Positions 3,065-44,350 of a stretch of 44,350 nucleotides of DNA are shown in pieces; position 1 is the first letter of the stretch; every line of letters starts with the position of its first letter. The DNA is taken from the UHGV virus genome UHGV-0187309; one strand, 5' to 3'. Origin of the DNA: a virus. The notes beneath the pieces were generated by a model. That model did not search any database. It was not told where the DNA came from and saw only the letters and a list, made by a program, of their open reading frames with translations. The position numbers were made by a program, and so were the translations under genes.

Positions 3065-3955
3065 TTACTCCTCATCGTCCTCGTGCATGACTTCATATCG
3101 CTTGATATCTCTCTTGCTTGCAATGGAAGCGGGTTCAAGGATACCGAGAACGCGCCCGATCAGAGTGACATTGTCATATTCTGTGAATGTCATGGTATCA
3201 TACTTATCATTAAACGATACCAGACCTTCTTCCTCATATATCTTTATGTATGTACTGTTTCCAACCATGAAAGCGCCGACCTCATCGTATTGCAGCTCCG
3301 GACAGCCGGGATACTTCTCCACAAGAACAAGGTCGCCGTCATGATACTCAGGCTCCATACTGTCGCCGTTGACAGGAAACACAAGGTCTGCCTGCCGTAT
3401 TGCTGTGTTCGTATTCGGATACAGATAGATCGGTGTTCCGTTGTCCTCAAACTCCGCCCCGCCGTCAAAGCCTGCTGCAAGCCCCTTGTCGCAGAGTGTC
3501 AGTTTGATGATCTCCGGGAAGCTGCCGACAGTCTCTGCCGCTTCAAGCGAGGATAGCAGACTGTCCATTGCAAGCTGGTGCGGATACGACAGTCCACGGT
3601 ATCTCTCTACCATAGACTTTTCCTTATCAGTATAGGTATCTTGCTTGTTTTCGATGCCATATAGTTCATACAGCGTGATACCAAGTGCGTCACATAGCTT
3701 AGGAACAACGCTGAAATCCGGGCGGGTTCTTCCGTTCTCCCAGTTACTGATAGCATTTGAGGTCACGCCGATTTTTTCTGCAATCACTTTCTGATCTAAT
3801 TTTAGACGCTCCCTGTAGTATTTGATGCGACCGCCAACCGCGTGAGCGTCCTTACGGTGGGCAGGATCAGAGATGTTACTCTTAATATCCTTGCCTCCCT
3901 GTGAGACTGAGATATTCGGTTTCTTACGCTGTTTCATTACAAAGCTCTCCTTCAA
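3065..3955 (-). CDS. Phage CI/LexA-like repressor (XRE-type HTH plus S24 peptidase domain)
   Basis: 296 aa; N-terminal HTH (QKVIAEKIGVTSNAISNWENGRTRP), C-terminal S24 signature GDSMEP and a downstream Lys; divergent from the next gene with intervening promoters. Confidence 0.9.
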   Translation of the reverse strand: MKESFVMKQRKKPNISVSQGGKDIKSNISDPAHRKDAHAVGGRIKYYRERLKLDQKVIAEKIGVTSNAISNWENGRTRPDFSVVPKLCDALGITLYELYGIENKQDTYTDKEKSMVERYRGLSYPHQLAMDSLLSSLEAAETVGSFPEIIKLTLCDKGLAAGFDGGAEFEDNGTPIYLYPNTNTAIRQADLVFPVNGDSMEPEYHDGDLVLVEKYPGCPELQYDEVGAFMVGNSTYIKIYEEEGLVSFNDKYDTMTFTEYDNVTLIGRVLGILEPASIASKRDIKRYEVMHEDDEE

Positions 3956-4097
3956 GAATGTATGGGATAGTCAATCCTCAAAACGAACAAATATTCTTAT
4001 TGAAATCTGTGCAACCCTACAAAGTTTATCAAAGACTTTTCAACGCTGAAAACGTTAGAAATGCGAAATTTGGCGTAGGCATTGCATCTTTGATCAC

Positions 4098-4126
4098 ATT
4101 ATAGCACACAATCGGTGTTTTGTCAA
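4098..4126 (-). promoter_or_regulatory. Repressor promoter (TTGACA-17-TATAAT on minus strand)
   Basis: Reverse complement of 4098-4126 reads TTGACA, 17 nt, TATAAT with TGn extended -10. Confidence 0.6.
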
Positions 4127-4131
4127 TACAA

Positions 4132-4147
4132 AATTGCACTTGCAATT
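4132..4147. promoter_or_regulatory. Palindromic candidate operator AATTGCA-CT-TGCAATT overlapping the -35 of the rightward promoter
   Basis: Perfect 7 bp inverted repeat with 2 bp centre, located between the two divergent promoters. Confidence 0.5.
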
Positions 4148-4168
4148 CGTTTGACGGTGTGATATAAT
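4140..4168 (+). promoter_or_regulatory. Rightward promoter (TTGCAA-17-TATAAT) for the ImmA-like gene
   Basis: TTGCAA at 4140-4145, 17 nt spacer, TATAAT at 4163-4168; about 200 nt leader before ATG at 4370. Confidence 0.55.
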
Positions 4169-4369
4169 AGCAATGTCGGTATTCCGCCTACAGGAAAATG
4201 AGACCGAAGGCTGGTGCAGTGTGTCCGTCTTAAGGTGTGTGACAGGACAGACTGCCGGTCAGAGTACCGACAACTTCGCCATCAACCCACTTCGCCACGA
4301 TAGATATACAGAACAATAGAATGGAGCTAATGTTGGAAATACCATAAGTTGCGAAACAGGAGGGCGTAA

Positions 4370-10601: not shown

Positions 10602-13487
10602 GTGGTGATTTTATTGAGCAGACGTGTACTTTCCATCGACTTAGAGACCTATTCGGATGTAGACCTCCCGAACTGCGGTGTGTACCGCTATGTTGAGGGA
10701 GATTTCCATATCCTGCTGTTCGCATATGCATTTGACGATGAGGAGACAAAATGCGTGGATATGGCCTGCGGGGAGCAGCTCCCGGCAGAGGTCGTGGATG
10801 CGCTGCAGGATGACAGTATTATCAAATCGGCATGGAACGCACAGTTTGAGCGTACCTGCCTTTCAAAATATCTCGGTACGCAGATTTCTCCGGACTCGTG
10901 GCAATGCACGATGGTATGGGCGGCATCGCTTTCACTTCCGCTGAAGCTGGCAACGGCTGCACAGGCACTGAAAACTGCACAGCAGAAGGACGCTGTCGGT
11001 GAGCGTCTTATCCGTTATTTCTCTCTGCCCTGTAAGCCCACCAAAGCAAACGGCGGCAGAACAAGAAATCTGCCGGAACACGCCCCCGAAGACTGGAAGC
11101 TGTTCAAAAGCTACTGCATACAGGACGTGGAAACCGAGCGGGATATCCGCCGCAGGCTTGAAAAGTTCCCCCTGCTCCCGCAGGAATGGGACTACTACCA
11201 CATGGATCAGCGGATCAATGATCGCGGTATCCTGATCGACAAAGAGCTTGTGCAGCAGGCTATTATCTGCAATATGGCAATGTCCGAAGAAATGACAAAA
11301 CGTGCATACGCTCTGACAGGACTTGAAAATCCGAATTCCGTATCACAGCTCAAGGGATGGCTTGAGGAGCGTGGCATTGAGGTGGATTCCCTCGGCAAAA
11401 AGAATGTCGCTTCTCTTATCACAGACCTCGACAGGCACAGCGCAGACGGTGAGGCTCTGGATATGATGAAGCTGCGGTTGCAGATGGCAAAGTCCTCTGT
11501 GAAAAAGTATCAGGCGGCAGAGAGATACATCTGTCAGGACGGCAGGGCGCACGGACTGTTTCAGTTTTCCGGAGCTCAGCGAACACAGCGCTGGTGTCTT
11601 ACCGGCGATCATGAAATACTGACAGATAAAGGCTGGCTCAGGCTTGATAATTGGCAGGGCGGTAAGATTGCTTGTTGGAATCCTAATCAGGAAATGGTCT
11701 CGTTCCAGAAAGCGAACGTATTGTGCTTTGAATATGACGGTCCTATCTACCGCTATGAGGACAAACGGATCGATCAGATCAGCACGCCGGATCACAAAAT
11801 GCGTGTAAAGAAACGGTATAACGGCGAGTGGACGGATGACACTGTTGGCAATATGGAAAAGTATCGTCCTTCTATTCCGTTTACCGGACGCAGACAAACG
11901 ATGCCCGGCTTGGAGCACGCAGAACTGAGGGTACTGGTGATGACGCAGGCTGACGGCAGCTATAAAGAAGATGGAATGCTCTGCTTCCATTTCAAGAAGA
12001 AAAGGAAAATAGAACGGTGCAAACATCTGCTCAGACAGGCGGGCATTTATTTCACAGTGAATGAATGCAGGACAGATGGAACAACGCAGATCAAGATTCC
12101 TTCCCGTGAGCAGCCGATGTATCTAAGAATGTTTCATAACAAGACATTTGGAATGTGGCTTCTCGATGAAAGCCCGGATGTTTTCTTTGATGAGCTTCGG
12201 TATTGGGACGGATCGCAAAGCGCCAAAAACAGTATCCAATATACCACAACGAACAAAGTGAATGCCGATATTGTTCAGGCTTTTGCTCATACAAGTGGTC
12301 GCTGTGCAAAAATGAAAACGGTCATCCGGGATAAAGAACACCCGAATTGGAGCGATGCATACTATCTCGATATATGGCTCACTCCGAAAAACTGTCATGA
12401 AATCAGAGTGAAGCCGACTATCTCGCAATTCAGCGGCAAAATATACTGTGCTGAAACCCCAACCGGATACTTCCTTGTAAGACGTAATGGTAAAGTGTGG
12501 GTAACAGGAAACAGCGGGCGCGGCATTCAATTACAGAACCTGCCGCAGAACCACATCTCTACCCTCGATGAAGCAAGAGAACTTGTCAAAATGGGCTGCT
12601 TTGACATGATCGAAGCACTGTACGGCAATACGCCGGATATCCTGTCACAGCTTATCCGCACGATGCTCATTCCGAAGGACGGCTGTGAATTTATCGTGGC
12701 AGACTTCTCCGCCATTGAAGCGAGAGTACTTGCGTGGCTTGCCGGAGAACAGTGGCGGCTCGATGCCTTCAAGCGTGGCGAGGATATTTACTGTGCATCC
12801 GCATCGCAAATGTTCGGTGTTCCGGTCGTGAAGCACGGCATCAATGGAGAACTGCGGCAGAAAGGCAAGGTCGCTGAGCTTGCCTGTGGTTACGGAGGTG
12901 GCAGCGGTGCGCTGATCTCTATGGGTGCGCTGGATATGGGACTGAAAGAGGATGAACTTCCCGACATCATTTCAAGCTGGCGCGATGCAAACCCGGAGAT
13001 CGTGAAATTCTGGTATGCCGTGGAGAAAGCGGCGATCGAAACAGTCAAGGACCACGCGGAAAGAACGGTCGGCAGGATCGGTTTTCAGTTCTCTGCAAAT
13101 ACACTGTGGATCGTGCTGCCGTCCGGGCGCAGACTTGCCTACATCAAGCCGAGGTTACAGCCGAACCGTTTCGGGCGTATGGCGCTGACCTTTGAAGGAC
13201 TCGGTGCAAACAACAAATGGACGCGCGGTGAGACATACAGCGGCAAGCTGACGGAGAACATCACACAGGCGACCGCCCGTGACCTGCTTGCAGAGGCAAT
13301 GCACCGAATGGAGCTTGCGGGACTTGACATAGTCGGTCATGTGCATGATGAGGTCATTTTGGAAGTGCCGAAAAGACAATATACGGTCGATGATGTGTGC
13401 AATATCATGAATCAAAATCCGAGATGGGCAGACGGTCTGCCCTTATCATCTGCCGGATATACCGGCAATTACTACTTCAAAGACTGA
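10602..13487 (+). CDS. Family A DNA polymerase (3'-5' exonuclease plus polymerase domains) interrupted by an intein
   Basis: N-terminal LSIDLETYS exonuclease motif; after conceptual intein removal RTQRW|SGRGIQLQNLPQN resembles the PolA TGRLSSxxPNLQNIP motif; downstream HVHDEV motif C. Confidence 0.85.
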   Translation: MVILLSRRVLSIDLETYSDVDLPNCGVYRYVEGDFHILLFAYAFDDEETKCVDMACGEQLPAEVVDALQDDSIIKSAWNAQFERTCLSKYLGTQISPDSWQCTMVWAASLSLPLKLATAAQALKTAQQKDAVGERLIRYFSLPCKPTKANGGRTRNLPEHAPEDWKLFKSYCIQDVETERDIRRRLEKFPLLPQEWDYYHMDQRINDRGILIDKELVQQAIICNMAMSEEMTKRAYALTGLENPNSVSQLKGWLEERGIEVDSLGKKNVASLITDLDRHSADGEALDMMKLRLQMAKSSVKKYQAAERYICQDGRAHGLFQFSGAQRTQRWCLTGDHEILTDKGWLRLDNWQGGKIACWNPNQEMVSFQKANVLCFEYDGPIYRYEDKRIDQISTPDHKMRVKKRYNGEWTDDTVGNMEKYRPSIPFTGRRQTMPGLEHAELRVLVMTQADGSYKEDGMLCFHFKKKRKIERCKHLLRQAGIYFTVNECRTDGTTQIKIPSREQPMYLRMFHNKTFGMWLLDESPDVFFDELRYWDGSQSAKNSIQYTTTNKVNADIVQAFAHTSGRCAKMKTVIRDKEHPNWSDAYYLDIWLTPKNCHEIRVKPTISQFSGKIYCAETPTGYFLVRRNGKVWVTGNSGRGIQLQNLPQNHISTLDEARELVKMGCFDMIEALYGNTPDILSQLIRTMLIPKDGCEFIVADFSAIEARVLAWLAGEQWRLDAFKRGEDIYCASASQMFGVPVVKHGINGELRQKGKVAELACGYGGGSGALISMGALDMGLKEDELPDIISSWRDANPEIVKFWYAVEKAAIETVKDHAERTVGRIGFQFSANTLWIVLPSGRRLAYIKPRLQPNRFGRMALTFEGLGANNKWTRGETYSGKLTENITQATARDLLAEAMHRMELAGLDIVGHVHDEVILEVPKRQYTVDDVCNIMNQNPRWADGLPLSSAGYTGNYYFKD
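11595..12512 (+). mobile_element. Intein (about 306 aa) within the DNA polymerase
   Basis: Begins CLTGDHEILT (block A-like), ends YFLVRRNGKVWVTGN followed by Ser as +1 residue (block F/G-like); flanking exteins rejoin into a conserved polymerase motif. Confidence 0.65.
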
Positions 13488-28350: not shown

Positions 28351-28582
28351 ATGTGCGGTCGTGACCGCTTACACAGAGATTTCTATGCTCAAGGGCGACG
28401 ATCTGAAATATCTGTATGACTATCTTTCCGGCTTTATCGGCAGACCGGTGTATACACACGAGATTTCTGCTGTGGTGATGGCTTACAGAGAGCAGATCAG
28501 GGAGGACTTCCTCGATCTGTGCAGGAACGCAAAGGAGGCGGATGATGGATCAGAAACACTTGACTCTCGGCAGCTTATTTGA
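28337..28582 (+). CDS. Small hypothetical protein
   Basis: 81 aa ORF from ATG 28337; overlaps both neighbouring genes; no recognisable motif. Confidence 0.45.
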   Translation: MTKHECAVVTAYTEISMLKGDDLKYLYDYLSGFIGRPVYTHEISAVVMAYREQIREDFLDLCRNAKEADDGSETLDSRQLI

Positions 28583-31145
28583 CGGCTCCGGTGGCTTTCC
28601 GCTTGGCGGCATCCTTGCAGGGATCGAGCCGAAGTGGAGCAGCGAAATTGAACCATTCCCGGTGCTTGTCACGCACAAGCGGCTGCCGCAGGTGAAGCAC
28701 TACGGCGATGTATCCAAACTGAACGGAGCAGAGCTTCCGCCGGTGGATATCATCACCTTCGGCAGCCCGTGTCAGGATCTGTCCATAGCGGGCAAGCGCG
28801 CCGGAATCCATGACGGTGATCGGTCAAACCTGTTCTTTCAGGCGATCCGCATCATCAAAGAAATGAGGGATGCAACAAATGGACGATATCCGCGATACTG
28901 CGTCTGGGAAAATGTCCCCGGCGCTTTCTCATCCAACGGAGGAAACGACTTCAAGGCTGTCCTCGAAGCAGTTATCGGAGTTAAAGAAAAAGGGATCGAG
29001 GTGCCTGCGCCTGAAAATCACAGATGGGCAAAATCAGACGTATATCTGGGAGACGGATGGAGCGTGGCTTACCGAGTTTTCGATGCTCAATACTGGGGTG
29101 TCCCCCAACGCAGAGCAAGAATCTACCTTGTCGCAGATCTTGCTGGTGGAAGTGCCGGAGAAGTATTATTTAAGTCCGAAGGCGTGTCTGGGTATACTCC
29201 GCAGGGCTTCCGTGCGTGGCAAGGAGCTGCCGGAGGTGCTGAAGAAGGCACTGGAGAGACAGGCGGGCGGTCTGACGCTGGAGGTGGAACCCTCTGCCTG
29301 AATACACAGGGCAACAGCGGCGTCGGCATCACCGAGAACAAGGCTCTCGCACTGGTCGCACAGGATCATGGCAATCATCCGGCTGTGCTTCATGCGGTCG
29401 GTATCGACGGCTACAATGCTGCGGTCACCGATGATACGGCAGCAACGCTTGGTGTGAACTGCGGAATGTCCACAGGCAGAAACGGTGTCCTGCAGGCGGC
29501 GGGATTTTCCACAGAACACAGTGCAAAAGCAAGGAGCATCGGCTACGAGGAAGAGGTATCTCCCACACTTCGAGCCGGTGTTGTTCCGGCGGCAATGGAG
29601 TTATATGAAAATCATGGGCAGGACAGCAGATTCAGAGGACCTTTGGATGTAGCACAGCCTGTGACTGCTACCTACGGCATGGGCGGCAACAATCAGCCGC
29701 TTGTGGTAGAGAACAATCCCACGGACGGCAGAGCGAAGATCAATCCCGACGGTGTGTTTCAGACGCTCTGCGGACGAGCCGGAACAGGCGGAAACAACAC
29801 GCCGCTTGTTGCTGAACCGGTCACGCTGAAAATCAGGTCGGGATGTGAGGGCGGTGGCAAGGGTGCTTTATGGCAGACCGACAAGTCTGCTACGCTCGGC
29901 ACAAACAATGACCAGAGTGTATTTGTTCCGTTCGTCAAGGGAACACGTCCGCACTCTGCTGAAGAGGGGCAAACATGGAAACCCGGCGAGGTCGCCAATA
30001 CACTGAATACCTTTGATGTCGGTGAAAGTCGCTGCAATGAACTTGTGGTGGAAGAGCCGCAGATCAGGGCTTTCGGTGTATGCAGCAAGCATTCCAATGC
30101 GATGATGTCCGACAATCCGCACAGCGGATTCTATGAGGCGACCACAAGCAGAACGCTCGACCAAAGTGGTGGAAATTCTGTGACATCGAATCAGGGCGGC
30201 ATCTGCGTGGTAGCACCTGCGCCTGAAACCTTCGATGTGCGTTTCACATCAGACGGTACAAAAAACGCTCGTGGGCATTGCTATCCGACAGACATCTCCC
30301 GATGCCTTGATACGAGCGAGGGATCGCCAGACTCGAATCACGGCGGTGTCGCTGTGGTGGCTCTTGAACCGGGGGCTGCATCACGTGTCGGCGGTCATGT
30401 ATACAGTGACGGCAAAAGCGGTACGCTTCGAGCCAATGCCGGCGATAATCAGCAGGCTGTTGTGGTCGCCGAGCCGGAGACCTATGCTCTGCAAGGCTCG
30501 ATGATCGGTCGTGCCGACAAGAACGGTCCGCAGGGTGATGGCATCAACGAGGATGTGTGCTTTACGCTCAATACATCGGACAGACACGCCATTGCCGCAC
30601 CTGATCCGTCCTTCACAATTTCCCGCGACAACCATTTTGCCGTTTCGGAGGATGTATCCGTTACAGCCGTGGCAAGAGGCCCTGCGGCAGTCGCAGCACC
30701 GGCAGACCACTATTGCACCAGTAAGAATTCGCATCATACGGTCGCCGCCCATGAGCAGGCAAACACGCTGGTCGCTTCCGACTGGAAGGATCCGCCGCTT
30801 GTGAACGACCTTCCGAATGACGAGCCAGTATATATCGTTCGCCGCTTGACTCCGGTTGAGTGCGCCAGATTGCAGGGATTCCCTGACTGGTGGTGTGCCG
30901 ACCTTGCAATTACTGATCCTTCCGATGAGGAGATCGCCTTCTGGACGGAGGTCTGGGAGACATGGCGGCAGGTCACAAATCCCAAGGGCAAGCCGAAAAC
31001 GGAAAAGCAGATCCGCAAATGGCTGGCTGATCCGTACACGGATTCAGCGGAGTACAAGCTGTGGGGCAACGGTGTCTCAGAGCCGGTCGTATACTTCGTG
31101 CTTTCCGGCATCGCATGGGCAGCGCAGAGAGATACACAAAAGTGA
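28542..31145 (+). CDS. DNA cytosine-5 methyltransferase with an unusually long, internally repetitive variable (target-recognition) region
   Basis: Motif I LFDGSGGF, motif IV GSPCQDLS, motif VI ENVPG in first ~130 aa; motifs IX/X (RRLTPVECARLQGFPDWW ... LWGNGVSEPVVYF) only in the last ~100 aa; ~600 aa in between with recurring TL-containing modules. True start may be ATG 28545. Confidence 0.85.
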   Translation: MMDQKHLTLGSLFDGSGGFPLGGILAGIEPKWSSEIEPFPVLVTHKRLPQVKHYGDVSKLNGAELPPVDIITFGSPCQDLSIAGKRAGIHDGDRSNLFFQAIRIIKEMRDATNGRYPRYCVWENVPGAFSSNGGNDFKAVLEAVIGVKEKGIEVPAPENHRWAKSDVYLGDGWSVAYRVFDAQYWGVPQRRARIYLVADLAGGSAGEVLFKSEGVSGYTPQGFRAWQGAAGGAEEGTGETGGRSDAGGGTLCLNTQGNSGVGITENKALALVAQDHGNHPAVLHAVGIDGYNAAVTDDTAATLGVNCGMSTGRNGVLQAAGFSTEHSAKARSIGYEEEVSPTLRAGVVPAAMELYENHGQDSRFRGPLDVAQPVTATYGMGGNNQPLVVENNPTDGRAKINPDGVFQTLCGRAGTGGNNTPLVAEPVTLKIRSGCEGGGKGALWQTDKSATLGTNNDQSVFVPFVKGTRPHSAEEGQTWKPGEVANTLNTFDVGESRCNELVVEEPQIRAFGVCSKHSNAMMSDNPHSGFYEATTSRTLDQSGGNSVTSNQGGICVVAPAPETFDVRFTSDGTKNARGHCYPTDISRCLDTSEGSPDSNHGGVAVVALEPGAASRVGGHVYSDGKSGTLRANAGDNQQAVVVAEPETYALQGSMIGRADKNGPQGDGINEDVCFTLNTSDRHAIAAPDPSFTISRDNHFAVSEDVSVTAVARGPAAVAAPADHYCTSKNSHHTVAAHEQANTLVASDWKDPPLVNDLPNDEPVYIVRRLTPVECARLQGFPDWWCADLAITDPSDEEIAFWTEVWETWRQVTNPKGKPKTEKQIRKWLADPYTDSAEYKLWGNGVSEPVVYFVLSGIAWAAQRDTQK

Positions 31146-35613: not shown

Positions 35614-36084
35614 ATGAACGACAGCTACTTTGAGGAGATGACCTTCCAGTGCGCCGCCTATGAACGCGCCAAAAAGGAGCGCGCCGAGCGCAAGGCTCAG
35701 ATTGCCGAAGCCCACGGCTACGACAGCCCGGAGGTGGACGCTTGGTACGCTGAGGAGAAGGCGGCAGGTCCTTACCCCTACAGCGGCAATGAGATGAAAG
35801 CCTACTGGGTGTACAAGATGCGCCGCGAGAACGACGGTGACGAGTTCGAGATGAGCGATTACTGCTGGGACAAGGAATTCCACGATTTCATCGAAACGCT
35901 CCGCAAGCTAGGCATCACCGAGTTCACGATCACCAATCAGAGCACGGCGCTGATGGAGAACATCTACGGATTTATTGCAGAAGGCTGCACGATGGTCGGA
36001 ACGCACACCATCACCAAGAAGAGCCTGCGCTGGGGCGAGGAAGAATACGAAACGGCACAGGGCATCCTTTTCAAGGTGAACTGA
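35614..36084 (+). CDS. Hypothetical protein
   Basis: 156 aa from ATG 35614 (GGAGGATACGAAC RBS). Confidence 0.7.
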   Translation: MNDSYFEEMTFQCAAYERAKKERAERKAQIAEAHGYDSPEVDAWYAEEKAAGPYPYSGNEMKAYWVYKMRRENDGDEFEMSDYCWDKEFHDFIETLRKLGITEFTITNQSTALMENIYGFIAEGCTMVGTHTITKKSLRWGEEEYETAQGILFKVN

Positions 36085-36092
36085 TATCGACA

Positions 36093-36130
36093 GGAGCAGG
36101 GCTTCGGCTCTGCTCCCCTCCCCCTTTTCC
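36093..36130 (+). terminator. Rho-independent terminator-like hairpin (10 bp stem, TTCG loop)
   Basis: GGAGCAGGGC-TTCG-GCTCTGCTCC followed by CCTCCCCCTTTTCC; near-identical hairpin also after 38529. Confidence 0.55.
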
Positions 36131-36200
36131 TCATGTGTAAATCCTACAATACGAAAGGCTGAGATCGGCGATTCTTCTACGTTTTATTTTGCACATAGGC

Positions 36201-36270
36201 GTGGACTTATCAGCAGGATCATGGTAATATGTGACACAACGGAAGGGCAGAACGCCTACCGAAAAACGAA
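36201..36270 (+). promoter_or_regulatory. Cassette promoter P5 (GTGGAC-18-TAATAT) plus leader hairpin
   Basis: TAATATGTGACACAACGGAAGGGCAGAACGCCTACCGAAAA. Confidence 0.55.
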
Positions 36271-36285
36271 ACGGAGGATAACACC

Positions 36286-36606
36286 ATGAACCCCTACACA
36301 CTGAGAAAGAGCCTGAACCTGATTGATGCCAACACGGCGATCACCCGCGAGGACTTCGAGAGCCTCTTCTGCAAGACTGCAGAGCGTGTCACCTTTACCT
36401 TCAACGGTTGGGACGGCAAGAGCTATGATGGCGAGAGGCGCAGCGGTTACGTTTACCGCACCATCATCGAGGGCTACGAGAATGTGAGATTCGTTAAGGT
36501 CGGCAAGGGACTGCATTACATCGATGAGGACAGCAGCATTACCGAGAAGGCTACGGGCATCGCCCACAAGGAAGCAGAGTGGCTGGTCGATGTGAAGAGA
36601 GCATAA
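36286..36606 (+). CDS. Hypothetical protein
   Basis: 106 aa; ACGGAGGATAA RBS. Confidence 0.7.
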   Translation: MNPYTLRKSLNLIDANTAITREDFESLFCKTAERVTFTFNGWDGKSYDGERRSGYVYRTIIEGYENVRFVKVGKGLHYIDEDSSITEKATGIAHKEAEWLVDVKRA

Positions 36607-36672
36607 GCAAAACAGCGGAGCCCTTCCTGCGGGGAGGGCTTACCGCAGAAAAAAACATGGAGGTTTACGAAC

Positions 36673-37056
36673 ATGAGTACGAATTCAAGAGTCGGAATTC
36701 TGCATCAGGACGGCGTCACGGAGACAATCTACTGCCATTGGGACGGCTACCCCGAACACCAGATGCCCATCCTCACCGAGCATTATAACACCGCCGAGAA
36801 GGTCAAGGCACTGCTTGCCCTTGGAGACATCAGCATCCTCGGCGAGCGCCTTGCTCCCGATGCGGATGAGCCGCACAGCTTTGAAAAGCCTGCCGATGGT
36901 GTGACGGTTGCTTACCACCGCGACCGCAAAGAGCCGATGCAGCCTGCGGTCACCCACAAGAGCGTTGTTTCCCTGATGAGCGATGACTGGGGCATTCCGT
37001 ATTACTACCTTTTCGATGAGGAAAAAGGAGCATGGCTTCCGCCGACCGAGGACTGA
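36673..37056 (+). CDS. Hypothetical protein
   Basis: 127 aa; GGAGG RBS; co-transcribed position after 36286 gene. Confidence 0.7.
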   Translation: MSTNSRVGILHQDGVTETIYCHWDGYPEHQMPILTEHYNTAEKVKALLALGDISILGERLAPDADEPHSFEKPADGVTVAYHRDRKEPMQPAVTHKSVVSLMSDDWGIPYYYLFDEEKGAWLPPTED

Positions 37057-37235
37057 TAGGTTCAGCCCTGCGGGGCTGACTTGCCCCACGTTGTCCTTTG
37101 TGCGGTTTTCCTGCGATAAGCTTGCCCCTGCGGAAAGCCGCCTCACACGGCGCGTTTGTGTGCCTCCTGTGGGCTTGGTGCTATGTATACAACAAATGGC
37201 GCAGATACGCCGATTTTGTTCTGAACATTTAGCCG

Positions 37236-37300
37236 CTTGCTATTCCGGAAAGATCATGGTAATATGCTACACAACGGAAGGGCAAACGCCCACCGAATAC
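37236..37300 (+). promoter_or_regulatory. Cassette promoter P6 (CTTGCT-18-TAATAT) plus leader hairpin
   Basis: TAATATGCTACACAACGGAAGGGCAAACGCCCACCGAATAC. Confidence 0.55.
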
Positions 37301-37321
37301 AAAACACGGAGGTAAACCACC

Positions 37322-37687
37322 ATGACAAAGAAGGAAATGAAAGCCGCAGTTGCCAAGCTGAAGATGCTGCAGAACGGCAAAGCCGCCCTTGAGGGAATGA
37401 CCGAAGCGGACTGCCTTGAGCTTTTCGGGATCAGCAGAGCGCAGGCACTTGCAAACACAAACGCCGCCCTTGCCAAAACCGAGCAGGAGATTTTCAGAGC
37501 CGAGCATCCGCTGACAGGCATCGACAAACAGCTCTTCGAGATCGCAGCAAAGCACCTGATCACGGTGCAGGAGCGCGGAGACCTTGAAGCCCGCCACTGC
37601 GACAGCGAGGACTTCATCGAGGGTTCGGTCTGGGGGCTGGAAGCCGCCCTCAAGGATGCCTACGAGGCAGGACGCAAGAGCAAGTAA
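37322..37687 (+). CDS. Hypothetical protein
   Basis: 121 aa; ACGGAGGTAAACC RBS. Confidence 0.7.
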   Translation: MTKKEMKAAVAKLKMLQNGKAALEGMTEADCLELFGISRAQALANTNAALAKTEQEIFRAEHPLTGIDKQLFEIAAKHLITVQERGDLEARHCDSEDFIEGSVWGLEAALKDAYEAGRKSK

Positions 37688-37749
37688 CCAAACGGAACAG
37701 CGCAGCCCTTCCGCAGGGAGGGGCTGCCAATCCCGAAGGAGGAAAGAAC

Positions 37750-37929
37750 ATGGATACATACGCACAGCTTGAAATGCTGACCGCAGTCATCGCAAACCTG
37801 TCGGCCACGGGAACATGGACGGAGCGAGAAGTGATGGAAACGCTGCTGGATGTCTTTGAACCGAAGGAGCTTGAACAGCTCGGCTACGGCGACTGCGTGA
37901 ACGCATACTTGGAAGAGTACGGCGGATAG
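37750..37929 (+). CDS. Small hypothetical protein (59 aa), absent from the supplied ORF track
   Basis: ATG 37750 preceded by GAAGGAGGAAAG RBS; translation MDTYAQLEMLTAVIANLSATGTWTEREVMETLLDVFEPKELEQLGYGDCVNAYLEEYGG; TAG at 37927-37929. Confidence 0.55.
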   Translation: MDTYAQLEMLTAVIANLSATGTWTEREVMETLLDVFEPKELEQLGYGDCVNAYLEEYGG

Positions 37930-38098
37930 CGACGACACACGCACCACGTTGCCTCGTGTGGGGCGGTGCCGGGGAGATGCGTACAGCTTGCCCCTGCGAA
38001 AAGCCGCCTTACACGGCGCGTTCTGGCGCGTCCTATACGATGTACAATTCCGCCCGACTTCCCGCCTCATGTTTGTCACATTTATTTTGCAGACAGAC

Positions 38099-38135
38099 GT
38101 GGACTTTTCTGCGAAAAGACGGTAATATGTGACTA
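38099..38135 (+). promoter_or_regulatory. Cassette promoter P7 (GTGGAC-18-TAATAT)
   Basis: GACGGTAATATGTGACTAC core as in P1. Confidence 0.55.
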
Positions 38136-38175
38136 CCGCAAGAGAAGCGGAATCAATCAAAAGGAGCGAATCTAC

Positions 38176-38529
38176 ATGAAAATTCTGGTATGCGAACCCG
38201 GCAAGCACCCCTACGTCAAGGACATCGAGTCGGGGCTGGAGAACCTTCAGCACGAGGTGGACGGACTGATTCAGGCCCTCTACCCATTTTCCGAAGAGGC
38301 GGCTGTTGTGTGCAACGAAGAAGGGCTGTTCCGCGATGACCTCGAATGGAACAGAACGGTCGATCCCTATGGTCCGATCAAGGGAACATTCTTCATTTGT
38401 GGGCTCGGCTTTGAAGATTTTACAGGACTGACCGATGAACAGATCGAAAAGTACACTAAGCTCTTCTGGCCTCCTGAGCTTTTCATCCCGACACCGAACG
38501 GCATGGTGGTGCTTCACATTGTGGAATGA
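38176..38529 (+). CDS. Hypothetical protein
   Basis: 117 aa from ATG 38176 (AAAAGGAGCG RBS). Confidence 0.7.
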   Translation: MKILVCEPGKHPYVKDIESGLENLQHEVDGLIQALYPFSEEAAVVCNEEGLFRDDLEWNRTVDPYGPIKGTFFICGLGFEDFTGLTDEQIEKYTKLFWPPELFIPTPNGMVVLHIVE

Positions 38530-38631
38530 CCGCAACAGGGGCAGGGCTTCGGCTCTGCTCCGCACTATTCCCCGGTCATAATGTACACAACTGAACGCCG
38601 AAAAATGCAGAAATGATCGTGATTACTCACG

Positions 38632-38695
38632 CTTGATAATGTAGGCAAGAAGAGTTATACTGTGTACAACGGAAGGGCGGAAAGCCCAGCCGAAA
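38632..38695 (+). promoter_or_regulatory. Cassette promoter P8 (CTTGAT-18-TATACT) plus leader hairpin
   Basis: TATACTGTGTACAACGGAAGGGCGGAAAGCCCAGCCGAAAA. Confidence 0.55.
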
Positions 38696-38718
38696 ACGAA
38701 AATGCGGAGGTACACACC

Positions 38719-38898
38719 ATGAAAACGAAGCAGGAACTGATCGAGAAGGCAAAGAAAGAGTGGGGCGAGACTTGGAACGAGGGCATGATCGAGTACGATG
38801 CCGAGTACAACGAGTACATCGTCTGGGTAGGCAAGCCGGACATCTACAAAGCCTTCTTCGATGCCGACACCCTCAGATGCATTGGCACGAAGTGCTGA
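38719..38898 (+). CDS. Small hypothetical protein (59 aa)
   Basis: ATG 38719 with GCGGAGGTACAC RBS. Confidence 0.6.
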   Translation: MKTKQELIEKAKKEWGETWNEGMIEYDAEYNEYIVWVGKPDIYKAFFDADTLRCIGTKC

Positions 38899-38953
38899 GA
38901 ACAACCGCCGCCCTTCGGGGCGGCACAACACCAATACTAAGGAGGACATTTAC

Positions 38954-39226
38954 ATGAGCGAGAACACAGAAAAGCGCGATGCAGCCGAAGAACTAGAACT
39001 TACCGATGCACAGGCAGACCGCAACGATGACATCTACGAGGCAGCTTTTGAATTCTGCAAGGTGCTGACCGAGAACCCCGACCTCGAATGGGACATGGCG
39101 TTCCTCGGTGAGATCGCCGACCTTGCCGCTGGCATCATGACCGAGCAGGGACACAAGGTGCGGTTCCCCAGTGTGGTCACCGAGCAGGACGGCACGCAGT
39201 ACATTGAAGAATACTACGGCGGCTGA
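38954..39226 (+). CDS. Small acidic hypothetical protein (90 aa)
   Basis: ATG 38954 with AAGGAGGACA RBS; highly acidic. Confidence 0.65.
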   Translation: MSENTEKRDAAEELELTDAQADRNDDIYEAAFEFCKVLTENPDLEWDMAFLGEIADLAAGIMTEQGHKVRFPSVVTEQDGTQYIEEYYGG

Positions 39227-39426
39227 TCGGCAAAACGGAGCAGTCCTTCTGCGGAGGGGCTGTTCCACGCCACGTTCGCTTGTGTGGGGGGCTTACGGCT
39301 TTCTGCGGATATCTTGCCCCGCGATAAAAGCCGCCCACACGGCGCATTTGTGTGCCTCCTGTGGCAAGGCATAATATGTACAACAACCGACAAAAAATCG
39401 CCTTGCACATTCTGGTAGTTTAGCCG

Positions 39427-39490
39427 CTTGATATATCTGCCGAAAAGAGTTATAGTGTGTACAACGGAACGGGAAACCGAGCCGAAAACT
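39427..39490 (+). promoter_or_regulatory. Cassette promoter P9 (CTTGAT-18-TATAGT) plus leader hairpin
   Basis: TATAGTGTGTACAACGGAACGGGAAACCGAGCCGAAAA. Confidence 0.55.
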
Positions 39491-39512
39491 ACGAAAGAAC
39501 GAGGTAAACACT

Positions 39513-39749
39513 ATGTGGCACGAAGGCACGATTCTGGCACCGACCAAGGAAGGCAAGACGGTGGTTCACTACTGGGCAAAGGTCTACGACGAGGGCAGCC
39601 AGTACGGCATCAACGAGGGCAGAATCAGTAAACTGACACTCAAGGAGAATGGCAAGGTCATCTACAACTATGACAGAGGCGAGGATGTACCCGAGCAGAA
39701 CGAGGCTGCGGAGATTGCCCTTGCGATCCTGATGTACGAGTACAAGTAA
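39513..39749 (+). CDS. Small hypothetical protein (78 aa)
   Basis: ACGAGGTAAACACT RBS. Confidence 0.65.
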   Translation: MWHEGTILAPTKEGKTVVHYWAKVYDEGSQYGINEGRISKLTLKENGKVIYNYDRGEDVPEQNEAAEIALAILMYEYK

Positions 39750-39834
39750 ATAGAACGGTCGGTAGGCGGTAGCATTAAGCCGCCCATCCAAACCAAGACG
39801 GACACACATATAAATTCAAGGTGGATATACATAG

Positions 39835-39870
39835 GAGAGGCTTGCAGCACGCAGGCCTTTTCTTTATGCA
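39835..39870 (+). terminator. Candidate terminator hairpin before the packaging genes
   Basis: AGGCTTGC-AGCAC-GCAGGCCT stem-loop followed by TTTTCTTTAT. Confidence 0.45.
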
Positions 39871-39897
39871 GATTTTTTGAGAAAAGGAGTGATGCGG

Positions 39898-40371
39898 ATG
39901 GCTCAGAGAGGCAGAAAACCGACGCCGACAGCAATCAAGGAACTGGAAGGCAATCCCGGAAAACGACCGCTGAATGATGCAGAGCCGAAGCCGGAACGCA
40001 AGGCACCGCCCTGTCCGAAGTGGCTGGAGCCCGAAGCAAAAAAGGAATGGCGCAGGCTGTCAAAGCAACTGGAGCAGATTGGTGTGCTGACCGAGGTCGA
40101 TCAGGCGGCATTCGCATCCTACTGTCAGGCATACGCACGATGGAAAGAAGCCGAGGAATTCATGACCCAGCACGGCACGATCGTAAAAACAAAATCAGGT
40201 TACTGGCAGCAGGTTCCGCAGGTATCCATTGCGCAAACTTATCTGAAGATCATGAACAAGATCGCAGAGCAGTTTGGCCTGACCCCGGCGGCAAGAAGCC
40301 GTATCACTGCCGGCGCAGATATGAAAAACGCTGCCGTTGACGATATGGATGAACTTCTCGGAGGTGGCTGA
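39898..40371 (+). CDS. Terminase small subunit (P27-family-like)
   Basis: MAQRGRKPTPTAIKELEGNPGKRP N-terminus and FGLTPAARSRI near the C-terminus; immediately upstream of and overlapping terminase large subunit. Confidence 0.8.
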   Translation: MAQRGRKPTPTAIKELEGNPGKRPLNDAEPKPERKAPPCPKWLEPEAKKEWRRLSKQLEQIGVLTEVDQAAFASYCQAYARWKEAEEFMTQHGTIVKTKSGYWQQVPQVSIAQTYLKIMNKIAEQFGLTPAARSRITAGADMKNAAVDDMDELLGGG

Positions 40372-43037
40372 TGGCGAGAACGGCAAAGGCAAGAGAAAGA
40401 CCTGCCAACTATCCGAAACTGAAGGATTATAAACCGACACGCTTTATGCTGCCGGAATCGCACTACGATGCGGCAAAGGCTGACCGAGCTGTGCGGTTCA
40501 TCGAGAATCTCTGCCATACCAAAGGACGCTGGGCAGGCAAACCGTTCTGGCTGCTTCCGTGGCAGGAACAGATCATCCGGGATATTTTCGGCATCGTCAA
40601 AGAGGACGATATGCGGCAATTTCGTACCGCCTATGTCGAAATTCCAAAGAAAAATGGGAAGCAGCTTGCACTGGATACACCGATCCCGACTCCGCAGGGA
40701 TTCACCAATATGGGAGATCTGAAGGTCGGAGATACAGTATTCGATGAAAACGGCATTCCGTGCCATGTGGTTGCGAAAAGTCCTGTGGATGATACAGAGC
40801 AAGCCTACAAGCTGACCTTCAAGGACGGCACCTCGATCATTGCCGGGGAAAGGCATCTGTGGAACTGTCAGTATATTTACGGCAAACGCAAGGATGTTCT
40901 CTGGACGACCGGCGAGATCTATCGCAGGACAACGGAATACAGACAGCGTTTTTCCGACAGACCACAGACAAAGCGGGATTCCCTTATCCGAATTCCGGTG
41001 TGCGGTGTCCTTCAGACAGAAGCGGCAGTTTTACCGATTGATCCGTATCTGTACGGCTACTGGCTCGGAAACGGTAATGTGACCATGCCGGAGATCACTG
41101 TTCGGACGGAGGATGTCGAGGATATCATCTCGAATATTCCGTATAAGGTACACAACCGTTATCCGCAGAAATGCGGCGGCAGTGAGATCATAAAGTACAA
41201 TGAACTGAAAGCAGTACTACTTGACAGCTTCCGTGAAAAGAAGATCCGACCAGAATATCTGAGGGCATCCGCAGAGCAGAGATGGGCATTACTGCAAGGG
41301 CTTATGGATTCGGACGGCTGTATCGGCGAACGCAAAGGGCAAAGTGTGTATGTCACAACGCTGCGAGAGCTGGCGCTTTCCGTCAGAGAACTGCTGTGGT
41401 CACTCGGCATCAAAAATGCAGTGAAATGTGAGCCTTCTACACGGCATGGGTGGCCGACCGGCGAGATTTTGTATATCGTCCGTTTTACAACCTTTGATGG
41501 CCAACCGACATCAAGGCTTAAACGCAAAAATACACGCACACAGGCGCGGTTAAAGGAAACTCGCTCCTGTTTTCATTATCTGCTGGATATTCAACCTGTA
41601 AATCATCCTGTAAAAATGCAGTGCATTCAGGTGGACAGTCCGAGTCACCAATATCTCGCAGGACCGTCATTTGTGCCTACGCACAACAGTGAGCTTGCAG
41701 CGGCAATTGCACTGTATCTGCTCTACGCCGACAACGAGCCGTCTGCTGAGGTCTACGGCGCTGCTGCTGATCGTGGGCAGGCATCCATTGTATTCGATGT
41801 CGCCAAAAGAATGGTTGAGATGACACCGGCACTTCTGAAACGCTCAAAAATCATGGCGGCGACAAAGCGTCTGGTGAATTACAGTAATGTTGGCTTTTAT
41901 CAGGTGCTTTCAGCGGAAGTCGGTACAAAGCACGGATTGAATGTATCCGGTCTGGTTTTGGATGAACTTCATGCCCAACCGAACCGCAGCCTTGTGGATG
42001 TTCTCACAAAGGGTTCCGGTGATGCCCGTACTCAGCCGCTGTACTTCCTGATCACAACCGCCGGAACGGATCGCAACAGCATCTGCTACGAGTATCACAC
42101 GAAAGCAAAAGATATTCTGGACGGCAGGCGCATTGATCCGTCCTTCTATCCTGTGATCTACGGCTTGAACGATGATGACGACTGGAACGCAGAGGAGTCA
42201 TGGTATAAGGCAAATCCCTCGCTCGGATACACTATCGCCATCGACCGAGTCCGCGATGCTCACCGGGAAGCCCTTACAAATCCCGCTGAAGAAAATGTAT
42301 TCCGTCAGCTGAGGCTTGACCAGTGGGTAGGCAGTGCGGTGGCATGGATTCCGGAGCATATCTACGACAGGGGCAATCTTCCGATCGACCTCGAAAAGCT
42401 CCGGGGACGGGAGTGCTACGCAGGTCTTGACCTATCCAGCACATCGGATATCACGGCATTTGTGCTGGTGTTCCCTCCGCTGCATGACGGCGAGAAATAC
42501 ATCGTTGTCCCGCACTTCTGGCTGCCGAGAGAAACGCTCGATTTGCGAGTACGGCGAGACCATGTTCCCTACGATGTATGGGAGCGCATGGGATTATTTC
42601 ATATCACCGAGGGCAATGTGGTCGATTACAATTTCGTGCGGAAAACGATCAACGAGCTGCACACGATGTACAACATCAAGGAAATTGCTGCCGACCGCTG
42701 GAATGCCACACAGCTTATCACAGACCTTGAGGGAGACGGATTTACCGTTGTTCCGATGGGTATGGGCTTCAAGGATATGTCCCCGCCGATGAAGGAACTG
42801 TACAAGCTCATACTCGAGGGGCAGTTTATCCACGGCGGCAACCCTGTACTCCGCTGGATGGCAGGAAATGTGGTCGCTGAAATTGATGCAGCGGAGAACA
42901 TCAAACCAAGTAAAAAGAAAAGTACAGAAAAGATTGACGGTATCGTGGCATGGATCATGGCACTTGACCGCTGCATCCGCCACGAAATGCAGGGCAGTGT
43001 CTATGACGAACCCGGCCACGATCTTGTGGTCATCTGA
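40371..43037 (+). CDS. Terminase large subunit interrupted by an intein in the Walker A P-loop
   Basis: N-extein ends YVEIPKKNGK and C-extein resumes SELAAAIALYLLYADNEPSAEVYGAA, together restoring PKKNGKS; downstream VLDELH Walker B and nuclease domain. Confidence 0.9.
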   Translation: MARTAKARERPANYPKLKDYKPTRFMLPESHYDAAKADRAVRFIENLCHTKGRWAGKPFWLLPWQEQIIRDIFGIVKEDDMRQFRTAYVEIPKKNGKQLALDTPIPTPQGFTNMGDLKVGDTVFDENGIPCHVVAKSPVDDTEQAYKLTFKDGTSIIAGERHLWNCQYIYGKRKDVLWTTGEIYRRTTEYRQRFSDRPQTKRDSLIRIPVCGVLQTEAAVLPIDPYLYGYWLGNGNVTMPEITVRTEDVEDIISNIPYKVHNRYPQKCGGSEIIKYNELKAVLLDSFREKKIRPEYLRASAEQRWALLQGLMDSDGCIGERKGQSVYVTTLRELALSVRELLWSLGIKNAVKCEPSTRHGWPTGEILYIVRFTTFDGQPTSRLKRKNTRTQARLKETRSCFHYLLDIQPVNHPVKMQCIQVDSPSHQYLAGPSFVPTHNSELAAAIALYLLYADNEPSAEVYGAAADRGQASIVFDVAKRMVEMTPALLKRSKIMAATKRLVNYSNVGFYQVLSAEVGTKHGLNVSGLVLDELHAQPNRSLVDVLTKGSGDARTQPLYFLITTAGTDRNSICYEYHTKAKDILDGRRIDPSFYPVIYGLNDDDDWNAEESWYKANPSLGYTIAIDRVRDAHREALTNPAEENVFRQLRLDQWVGSAVAWIPEHIYDRGNLPIDLEKLRGRECYAGLDLSSTSDITAFVLVFPPLHDGEKYIVVPHFWLPRETLDLRVRRDHVPYDVWERMGLFHITEGNVVDYNFVRKTINELHTMYNIKEIAADRWNATQLITDLEGDGFTVVPMGMGFKDMSPPMKELYKLILEGQFIHGGNPVLRWMAGNVVAEIDAAENIKPSKKKSTEKIDGIVAWIMALDRCIRHEMQGSVYDEPGHDLVVI
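40662..41687 (+). mobile_element. Intein (about 342 aa) with LAGLIDADG-like homing endonuclease region, class-3-like features
   Basis: Begins QLALDTPI (block A-like, Gln not Cys/Ser at position 1), block B GTSIIAGERHLW, LAGLIDADG-like LLQGLMDSDGCIGE, block F/G MQCIQVDSPSHQYLAGPSFVPTHN then Ser. Confidence 0.65.
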
Positions 43038-43052
43038 CAGGAGGTAATGTTT

Positions 43053-44350
43053 ATGAGCTTTTTAAGCTGGCTCGGCATCAGCAAGCCGAGAGATGCGCCG
43101 ATGCTGCCTGATATTCAGGACAATGTCCGTGATTCTGGAAATCTGTTCGTATTCGGCATGACGCACAGCGGTGAACGTGTCGATGAGCGCACGGCGATGC
43201 AGATCGTGACTGTTTACGCCTGTGTTCGACTGCTCTCCAACACCATCGCAGGACTGCCGCTGCACCTATACAGATACACCGGCAAAGGCGATGATAAGGA
43301 ATTAGCCATTGACCATCCGCTGTACAAAATACTCTATCGGCAGCCGAATCCCGAAATGAGTTCATTCTCGTTCTGGGAAGCACTGATGTGCCACCTTTTA
43401 CTATGGGGCAACGCCTATGCACAGATTGTCCGGGACGGCAAAAACGGCATCCTCGGTCTCTATCCCCTGCTTCCCGAAAATGTCGAGATCGACCGTGATC
43501 CGAAATCCGGCGACCTGATCTACACTTACCACGCCTACACCGACGAAAAGCCCGGTGAGCATGACAAGGATATTATCTTCCGCAGGGATGAAATCTTACA
43601 CATCCCCGGTCTGGGATTCAATGGACTGGTCGGTTTCTCACCGATAGCGATGATGAAAAATGCACTCGGTGCGGTCATGGCAGTAGAGCGATACGGCAGC
43701 GCCTTCTTCAAAAACGGAGCGCAGCCTGCCGGAGTTCTCGAACATCCGGGCGTGCTGAAGGATCCGCAGAAGATCCGCGACAACTGGACAAAGGCATACG
43801 GCGGCGCACGGAACGCACACCGCATCGCAGTCCTCGAAGAAGGTATGCAGTATAAGCCAATCTCCCTGCCGCCGGAGGATTCGCAGTTTCTGTCCACAAG
43901 AGAATTCGATGTGGAGGAAATCTGCCGGATGTTTCAGGTTCCGCCGCATCTGGTACAAGACCTCAAACGCAGTACCTTCAATAACATCGAGCATCAGGGT
44001 ATTGCATTTGTGCAGTATTCTCTTATGCCGTGGATCATTCGCATCGAAAAGGGCATCATGAAAGACCTTCTTCTGGAGGAAGAACAGAATGTATATTTCC
44101 CGAAATTCAATGTGGACGGTCTGATGCGCGGCGACTACCAGAGCCGAATGAACGCCTACGCTATCGGTGTCGGCAACGGCTTTATGTCGCCCAATGATGT
44201 GCGCCGTCTTGAAAATATGGACTTGATCCCTGACGATCAGGGCGGCAACGACTACTACCTGAACGGCTCGTATAACAAGCTGGAGGATGCAGGTGCGGCA
44301 TATGCTCTGAATCAGCCGCAGGAACAGCCGGATACCGAGGAACAGGATGA
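43053..44350 (+). CDS. Portal protein (HK97-family-like); 3' end beyond window
   Basis: ATG 43053 with ACAGGAGGTAA RBS; open to the end of the window; position right after terminase large subunit. Confidence 0.8.
   Translation, partial: MSFLSWLGISKPRDAPMLPDIQDNVRDSGNLFVFGMTHSGERVDERTAMQIVTVYACVRLLSNTIAGLPLHLYRYTGKGDDKELAIDHPLYKILYRQPNPEMSSFSFWEALMCHLLLWGNAYAQIVRDGKNGILGLYPLLPENVEIDRDPKSGDLIYTYHAYTDEKPGEHDKDIIFRRDEILHIPGLGFNGLVGFSPIAMMKNALGAVMAVERYGSAFFKNGAQPAGVLEHPGVLKDPQKIRDNWTKAYGGARNAHRIAVLEEGMQYKPISLPPEDSQFLSTREFDVEEICRMFQVPPHLVQDLKRSTFNNIEHQGIAFVQYSLMPWIIRIEKGIMKDLLLEEEQNVYFPKFNVDGLMRGDYQSRMNAYAIGVGNGFMSPNDVRRLENMDLIPDDQGGNDYYLNGSYNKLEDAGAAYALNQPQEQPDTEEQD

Follow-up and report, generated by a model that had tools for sequence, protein, structure and literature searches.

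Class 3 inteins in the P-loops of phage terminases are, of course, already established, together with their proposed phage origin; these were reported between 2009 and 2016 (PMC2807308, PMC5050341). Inteins that lack an N-terminal nucleophile are found in DnaB, RecG, SNF2 and the large subunit of phage terminase (TerL), with "most inserted in an ATPase P-loop" (PMC2807308). When placed in reporters, mycobacteriophage TerL inteins splice efficiently; the "classic" TerL1-a site lies between the Lys and the Thr of Walker A (PMC5050341). In actinobacteriophages, the class 3 inteins that also hold a LAGLIDADG domain are nearly confined to terminases and Cas4 (bioRxiv 10.1101/2025.01.02.630785). Here, we compare with these systems a 342-codon insert in the TerL gene of UHGV virus genome UHGV-0187309, a stretch of 44,350 nucleotides called "the window" below. 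We read the insert as a class 3 intein with a LAGLIDADG homing-endonuclease domain, seated in the Walker A P-loop of TerL between Lys97 and Ser, and give that reading a probability of about 0.85.

The prototype of class 3 is the intein of phage Bethlehem, known as the "MP-Be DnaB intein" (Tori et al., 2010) and as TerL1-c (Kelley et al., 2016). Tblastn against the Bethlehem genome returned one full-length match, which lies in the terminase gene; the window intein and this one align end to end (342 versus 341 amino acids, 30% identity, E=2e-35). The Bethlehem intein shows Gln-1, Pro1, Ala47, Tyr49, Ser62, His65, Trp67, Lys319, Cys320, Asp324, His328, Phe330, Thr339, Asn341 and Thr+1. Because these residues and their numbers match PMC2807308 exactly, we infer that the intein in the Bethlehem terminase is the prototype of Tori et al. 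This identification with the "MP-Be DnaB intein", which comes from the numbering, would place the class 3 prototype in a gene now annotated as terminase (TerL1-c in PMC5050341).

The two inteins have a HINT domain and a LAGLIDADG domain in common, as well as a phage large terminase for a host, a first residue that is no nucleophile, and a hydroxyl-bearing residue at +1. Their key residues are shifted by at most one position: His65 and Trp67 are found in both, followed by Cys320 and Cys321, Thr339 and Thr340, Asn341 and Asn342, respectively. They differ in that the Bethlehem site is a poorly conserved helix rather than a P-loop, in that Bethlehem has Pro1 and Thr+1 where the window has Gln1 and Ser+1, and in that the Bethlehem phage is actinobacterial, whereas the phage of the window is clostridial. 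Further, Bethlehem keeps Asp in the first LAGLIDADG motif, and its endonuclease has been found by experiment to cut DNA (PMC5050341), whereas the window intein has Asn137 at that place.

Other phage terminase inteins (the Cjw1 gp8 "TerL1-a" type, and those of B124-14, 489E54-1 and Zipp) sit in the P-loop between GK and T or S, the same insertion point as in the window. They carry the Trp, Cys and Thr signature (WCT) and LAGLIDADG, and are 31-36% identical to the window intein. In Cjw1, the extein is homologous as well, reading ARKNGK/.../TELLAGIMLYLLVADG against PKKNGK/.../SELAAAIALYLLYADN in the window (slashes mark junctions). Residue 1 in these inteins is Ala, Glu, Arg, Leu, Ser or Cys, whereas it is Gln here; most of them have Asp in motif 1, and their hosts differ from that of the window phage. 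Eight phage terminases were sampled (Bacteroides B124-14, Rhodobacter RcKickapoo, Mycobacterium Cjw1 and Omega, Vibrio 489E54-1, Acidovorax ACF1, E. coli ph0011 and Gordonia Zipp). All eight hold a homologous Trp/Cys/Thr intein at the aligned site, after the Walker A Lys and before Ser or Thr; seven read GK at the junction, and Omega reads FK.

The closest solved structures for the splicing domain are the class 3 mini-inteins of mycobacterial DnaB (Msm DnaBi1, 6BS8; Mch DnaB1, 6RIX and 6RIY). Like the window intein, these lie in a P-loop and have Ser+1, and their WCT residues are Trp67, Cys118 and Thr137. Unlike it, they have no endonuclease, begin with Ala1, and reside in a helicase; the Cys48 of Msm DnaBi1 is Ala48 in the window intein.

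The terminase gene and its intein-free alleles

The host protein is a Terminase_1-type TerL (PF03354 plus PF20441), assigned by Pfam and PHROG 9, with an N-terminal ATPase that bears GK[ST] and a C-terminal nuclease. Its open reading frame (ORF), 40371..43037 (+), encodes 888 amino acids. The gene for the small terminase subunit (TerS) is immediately upstream, and its TGA stop shares one base with the TerL ATG, as read from the sequence; in related loci, the portal gene lies downstream. The insert, QLALDT...VPTHN, is 342 amino acids long and in frame at 40662-41687 (+); it runs from codon 98 (CAG, Gln), whose first base is 40662, through codon 439 (AAC, Asn), whose third base is 41687. A first-pass annotation, made from the letters of the window, had placed an intein at precisely these coordinates. 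All of the strings that it quoted were found in the insert: GTSIIAGERHLW, which holds His65 and Trp67; MQCIQVD, which holds Cys321; PTHN; YGYWLGNGN; and LLQGLMDSDGCIGE. In G+C content, the insert (50.1%) is no different from the exteins (51-52.5%).

Relatives were sought using as query the terminase spliced in silico. Hundreds of near-identical terminases were found in metagenomes from gut and rumen, and these come in three lengths: 546, 703 and 888 amino acids. The first of these is the length predicted for the spliced protein. In the exteins, the intein-free alleles of this length have 94-97% identity; their junction is ...EIPKKNGK/SELAAAIALYLLY... (that is, PKKNGK/SELAAA), and the gap in the protein alignment falls exactly over residues 98-439. 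The DNA alignment, made with the intein-free alleles P0004 and P0006, gives the same exact gap. The DNA junction of an intein-less terminase target is AAGAAAAATGGGAAG/AGTGAGCTTGCAGCG; the window's own gene, minus its intein, has the junction ...AAAAATGGGAAG/AGTGAGCTTGCA....

These comparisons establish the anatomy and the boundaries of the element, and its polymorphism among alleles. They also bear out the earlier proposal that excision restores a Walker A motif. Not only do natural alleles have PKKNGK/S, but the Pfam TerL_ATPase match, which is split into two stretches by the insert (71 bits), becomes one contiguous match over profile positions 1-177 of 178 (90 bits) when the insert is excised in silico. 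The first-pass annotation had asked whether homologous terminases keep the same ~340 amino acids as a conserved, unspliced insertion. The opposite is seen: near-identical terminases lack precisely the insert. At the DNA level, the element behaves like a mobile or optional allele.

Class 3 signature, predicted fold and proposed splicing route

Searching all Protein Data Bank (PDB) sequences with phmmer gave as match the class 3 DnaB intein of M. smegmatis (6BS8, E=1.3e-21). The class 3 inteins in the PDB, 6BS8 and, from M. chimaera, 6RIX and 6RIY, match with E=1e-21 to 6e-18, and the next matches are to the related gp41-1 intein. The N-terminal 70 residues of the window intein align without a gap to 6BS8, to which the last 26 can also be aligned.

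The class 3 positions were fixed by alignment to these solved inteins and to the biochemically characterized prototype, with residue roles in the 6BS8 alignment taken from PMC6195587 and PMC7664689. Here, His65, Trp67, Cys321 and Thr340-His341-Asn342 fall on His65, Trp67, Cys118 and Thr137-His-Asn of 6BS8. The Trp is at B:12, two residues past the block B His (His65-Leu-Trp67); Cys321, at F:4, corresponds to Cys118 in 6BS8 and to Cys320 in Bethlehem; and Thr340, at G:5, corresponds to Thr137 and Thr339 in the same two inteins. Residue 1 is Gln, which is not a nucleophile, and the terminal His341-Asn342 is followed by Ser at +1, a position that in class 3 holds Ser or Thr and rarely Cys. Both the non-nucleophilic first residue and the WCT signature had been read from the letters in the first-pass annotation, and both hold, residue for residue.

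These positions are conserved well beyond the window. Two samples were used: a close clade of 42 members, and 110 diverse full-length representatives. His65 and Trp67 are invariant in the clade. Among the 110 relatives, His65 is found in 110, Trp67 in 107, Cys321 in 110, Thr340 in 108 and Asn342 in 110, and the +1 residue is Ser in 60, Thr in 47 and Cys in 3. Gly-Lys precedes the intein (residues -2 and -1) in 56 of them. Residue 1 varies (Ala 75, Pro 8, Leu 7, Gly 6, Gln 2, Cys 2) and is a nucleophile in only two relatives. In the close clade, it is Gln in 33 of 42 (otherwise Glu 3, Ala 3, Leu 1, Met 1). Gln1 and an Asn in the first LAGLIDADG motif appear, in these alignments, to be traits specific to the clade.

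The family is large. With tblastn, full-length homologs (23-36% identity) turned up in 602 of 50,697 phage records, where the proteins that hold them are terminases, Cas4/RecB exonucleases and helicases. A HMMER scan through all of 1.84 billion cluster representatives gave 14,949 matches with E<=1e-3, and 2,527 with E<=1e-30. The window intein is an ordinary member of this well-described phage family, and conceptually it offers nothing new.

It is, nevertheless, easy to miss. No Pfam splicing-domain profile matches the full intein or its mini-intein relatives above threshold, and NCBIfam returns only matches, far below threshold, to intein-containing equivalogs. Standard domain libraries display just the LAGLIDADG domain within a split terminase, and public copies are named "terminase large subunit." Because the libraries miss the intein, over-sized TerL calls and misplacement in terminase phylogenies are to be expected from gene callers and phage classifiers, unless the 342 codons are removed.

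An AlphaFold (AF2) model of the intein, built on 42 homologs, has a mean confidence (pLDDT) of 94.6 and a predicted template-modeling score (pTM) of 0.92. The predicted fold is a HINT domain plus a LAGLIDADG domain, and the Foldseek matches that bear on the HINT assignment are inteins only. The whole model matches PI-SceI (E=3e-17; TM-score normalized to the query, 0.71), the splicing domain matches 6BS8 (TM-score normalized to the target, 0.88-0.90), and the central domain matches I-DmoI. PI-SceI, the yeast VMA1 intein, is the best match for the whole molecule, having HINT and LAGLIDADG in one chain; it differs in being a class 1 intein (Cys1), is ~15% identical, and keeps both catalytic Asp residues. 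The homology, the fold and the conservation of the catalytic positions are established.

Splicing itself, and its class 3 route, we infer by homology with the Bethlehem and mycobacterial DnaB inteins. The 888-amino acid precursor would fold first. Cys321 (F:4), aided by His65, Trp67 and Thr340, would then attack the Lys97-Gln98 bond, leaving the N-extein held as a thioester on Cys321 in a block F branch. From there, the N-extein would pass to the side chain of Ser+1, Asn342 would cyclize to release the intein, and an O-to-N acyl shift would deliver a terminase of 546 amino acids with an intact PKKNGKS P-loop. A 342-amino acid insert between GK and S should block nucleotide binding. Because a 39-kDa insert splits the ATP-binding loop, packaging should depend on splicing (an argument made in PMC5050341).

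The endonuclease domain presents a mixed picture. The first-pass annotation had noticed LAGLIDADG-like motifs, and both are there: Pfam LAGLIDADG_3 matches residues 206-273 with 31.6 bits, versus a curated cut-off of 22.5, and the Foldseek matches to I-DmoI and PI-SceI agree with two LAGLIDADG helices in a pseudo-dimeric alpha-beta-beta-alpha-beta-beta-alpha fold. What does not carry over to both motifs is the acidic residue that ends them. Motif 2 has it (DSDG, Asp218); motif 1 reads WLGNG, with Asn137. At this position, 101 of the 110 relatives have Asp, including the Bethlehem intein. In the clade, 34 of 41 members have Asn, which also recurs in unrelated members, such as that of Acidovorax phage ACF1. 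The endonuclease activity of the window intein is uncertain because Asn137 replaces the catalytic Asp of motif 1. The domain is, by its structure, a LAGLIDADG member whose catalytic competence appears in doubt. The features of the locus are collected in Table 1.

Table 1. Coordinates of the terminase genes, the intein and its parts in the window.
Feature	Position	Strand	Basis
Small terminase subunit (TerS) gene	39877..40371	+	Pfam Terminase_4, E=2.9e-31
TerL N-extein, residues 1-97, ending ...EIPKKNGK (first Walker A half)	40371..40661	+	N-terminal stretch of TerL_ATPase
Complete predicted intein, Gln1-Asn342	40662..41687	+	Gap in intein-free alleles; 6BS8 match; AF2 model; Foldseek PI-SceI
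N-terminal splicing region, blocks A and B, residues 1-70	40662..40871	+	Residues 2-71 align ungapped to 6BS8
His65 (B:10)	40854-40856	+	Block B
Trp67 (B:12)	40860-40862	+	Block B
LAGLIDADG homing-endonuclease domain, ~residues 120-295	41019..41546	+	Pfam LAGLIDADG_3; Foldseek I-DmoI/PI-SceI
LAGLIDADG motif 1, YLYGYWLGNGN, residues 128-139	41043-41078	+	Alignment with Bethlehem intein
Asn137, at acidic position of motif 1	41070-41072	+	
LAGLIDADG motif 2, LLQGLMDSDG, residues 209-220	~41286-41321	+	Alignment with Bethlehem intein
Asp218, in motif 2	41313-41315	+	
C-terminal splicing region, blocks F and G, residues 304-342	41571..41687	+	Residues 317-342 align to 6BS8 114-139
Cys321 (F:4)	41622-41624	+	Block F
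Thr340 (G:5), then His341 and Asn342	41679-41681 (Thr340); 41685-41687 (Asn342)	+	Block G
Ser+1 (AGT), predicted C-extein nucleophile; would be Ser of Walker A GKS after splicing	41688..41690	+	
C-extein: rest of TerL ATPase domain and nuclease domain	41688..43037	+	Pfam TerL_ATPase 442-580, TerL_nuclease 589-872

Allele population, selection and rival explanations

The site is polymorphic in a three-way fashion. The best 120 terminase matches comprise ~29 alleles with the full intein (~888 amino acids), 35 with a mini-intein and ~54 that are empty. The mini-intein alleles, 703 amino acids long (P0002, P0013; locus L001 3001-5112), hold a 157-amino acid class 3 mini-intein at the site of window position 40662. 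Its first 69 and last ~40 residues are common to the full intein, its Trp, Cys and Thr are kept, and it matches 6BS8 with E=7.5e-23. The ~48 amino acids in its middle are unrelated in sequence to the matching region of the full intein, and the mini-intein is therefore not the product of a simple recent deletion of the endonuclease.

The Ser+1 codon is AGT or AGC in intein alleles, full and mini, and TCT in the empty alleles sampled (L003, L005). No single synonymous step connects AGT/AGC to TCT, and the empty alleles differ at several flanking third positions too. Against allele L006, intein codons 1-123 (40662-41030) have zero synonymous differences, while the proportion of synonymous differences (pS) is 0.33 in the adjacent N-extein and 0.25 in the endonuclease domain. 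Patches of identity and of divergence like these follow one another over the entire length of the terminase gene, a sign of frequent, general mosaic recombination among these phages.

Genes around the terminase vary as well. The intein-free loci L003 and L004 have HTH/MazE-like and acyltransferase_3 genes on the opposite strand between terminase and portal; in intein-bearing loci, the portal follows the terminase directly. In the intein-bearing locus L009, a free-standing gene resembling HNH_3/AP2 homing endonucleases (3663-4388; allele P0071) comes right after the terminase.

The intein, including its endonuclease domain, is under purifying selection. Relative to L006, the ratio of nonsynonymous to synonymous rates (dN/dS) is 0.13 for the endonuclease domain, and as low as 0.04 for the C-terminal splicing region. 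Where pS is saturated, the proportion of nonsynonymous differences (pN) is 0.07-0.21 across the element and 0.13-0.21 in the endonuclease domain.

Several observations weigh against the reading of the insert as a class 3 homing intein. The assignment to class 3 rests on a sequence signature and on homology. Further, class 3 splicing takes more than a WCT triplet grafted onto a class 1 intein (PMC7664689), so the triplet alone is no proof of class 3. Block B:7 is Gly here, instead of Thr, Ser or Asn; this position is dispensable in the class 3 prototype (PMC2807308). The homing part of the reading may fail owing to Asn137. Last, a co-conversion tract was looked for around the insertion site as evidence of homing, but the identity is patchy along the entire gene, as general recombination leaves it, and cannot be taken for such a tract.

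We give somewhat less than an even chance to the strongest competitor. Here, the intein splices, its endonuclease is dead or merely nicks, and the element is kept up through vertical inheritance and the usual recombination of phages, not through active homing. This would agree with an Asn at the metal-binding position where most relatives, and the DNA-cutting Bethlehem intein, have Asp, and with the fixation of that Asn in the clade. It would agree also with the mini-inteins, which lack an endonuclease and are about as common at the site as full inteins, and with the different Ser codon family at +1 in the sampled empty alleles. Against it stand the purifying selection on the domain, with dN/dS at 0.13 and pN barely above that of the splicing domain, and the retention of Asp218. 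The recurrence of Asn in unrelated members, for example that of ACF1, also speaks against it. That some terminases carry the intein and others do not, at 94-97% protein identity, agrees with recent mobility, although their DNA is far more diverged (dS ~0.9-1.9).

Two rivals to the splicing part of the class 3 reading fare much worse. One proposes that the insert is a splicing-dead remnant or a retained domain, the terminase being inactive, as in a defective prophage, or working with the insert in place. The window may indeed be an integrated prophage, as it has a CI-like repressor and related alleles are on Mb-size contigs. Every catalytic position is, however, intact and conserved, purifying selection is strong on exteins and splicing regions alike, and the same allele occurs on many independent contigs, viral assemblies included. 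An insert between the GK and the S of the P-loop would, further, be incompatible with nucleotide binding (the argument of PMC5050341). We regard this proposal as very improbable. The other has the Ser+1 attack the N-terminal junction directly, with Cys321 merely assisting, as in class 2 (KlbA-type) inteins, which also lack an N-terminal nucleophile. Class 2 inteins are known, however, only from archaeal KlbA, and have Ala1, Asp at F:4, no WCT, and Cys+1 (PMC2807308), whereas the window intein has Gln1, Cys at F:4, the full WCT, Ser+1, and homology over its whole length to the prototype. That prototype has an absolute need for its Cys at F:4, and a branched intermediate linked through a Cys has been demonstrated for it (PMC2807308). 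A class 2 route is, in our judgment, extremely improbable.

One might also ask whether the peculiarities of this clade reflect functional specialization. Under this hypothesis, which we consider unlikely, Gln1, an invariant Cys34 and the fixed Asn137, in an endonuclease motif that purifying selection maintains, would be marks of specialization and not of drift. One form that such specialization could take is a LAGLIDADG enzyme with an Asn/Asp pair, for example a homing nickase or a co-opted DNA-binding module. In another form, thiol-dependent class 3 chemistry could make splicing a redox- or oxygen-gated switch for packaging in the phage of an obligate anaerobe, much as oxidative stress has been shown to control the class 3 intein in M. 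smegmatis DnaB. Cys34 (40761-40763) is invariant in 42 of 42 clade members and is replaced by Thr, His, Val or Ala in distant class 3 inteins. The redox partner in Msm DnaBi1, Cys48, aligns to Ala48 here, and Cys34 has a different place on the hairpin.

Phage context and a second intein

The window is a temperate phage or prophage. Its genes include those for a CI-like S24 repressor, a DUF2800 nuclease, an Enc34-type single-stranded DNA-binding protein, DNA polymerase A, an SNF2 helicase, a D5-type primase-helicase, MetK, NrdD, three DNA methyltransferases, TerS and TerL. The species-representative genomes of the intein clade are metagenome-assembled genomes, among them three of Oscillospiraceae, two of Ruminococcus, and others of Lachnospiraceae, Eubacteriales, an unclassified bacterium and one Fretibacterium bin. 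We place the host phage, temperate or a prophage, with gut Clostridia (Oscillospiraceae, Ruminococcus or Lachnospiraceae). Megablast of 36000-44350 against the phage collection gave no match, and there is no close DNA relative in that collection; tblastn found no second copy of the terminase intein in the window.

One of the methyltransferases is unusual. The ORF at 28542-31145 (+) encodes a C5 cytosine methyltransferase of 867 amino acids, in which ~500 amino acids rich in Gly, Ser, Thr and Asn separate the N-terminal catalytic motifs (through ENV) from the C-terminal motifs. This insert, far longer than the usual target-recognition domain, was considered as an intein and rejected, as it has no intein features.

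A second intein, unrelated in sequence to the first, does lie in the window. It is 306 amino acids long (11595-12512, +), inside the DNA polymerase A ORF (10602-13487), and reads ...GAQRTQRW/CLTGDHEILT...GKVWVTGN/SGRGIQLQNLPQN. It begins with Cys1, as class 1 inteins do, has TPDH in block B and LAGLIDADG-like LVMTQADGS and ELRYWDGS, and ends in Gly-Asn without a penultimate His. The Pfam and PHROG matches of the polymerase are split around it, and the insert itself matches internal parts of PhoH and ribonucleotide reductase (RNR) PHROGs. The empty, mini and full alleles of the terminase, together with this second polymorphic intein, make a natural data set for the intein homing cycle in phages of Clostridia.

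Homologous polymerases come in three sizes: 651-655 amino acids (empty), ~957-961, and ~1270-1300, the last of which possibly hold two inteins. The empty polymerase alleles read RTQRW/AGRGIQ, with Ala where the intein allele has its Ser+1 nucleophile.

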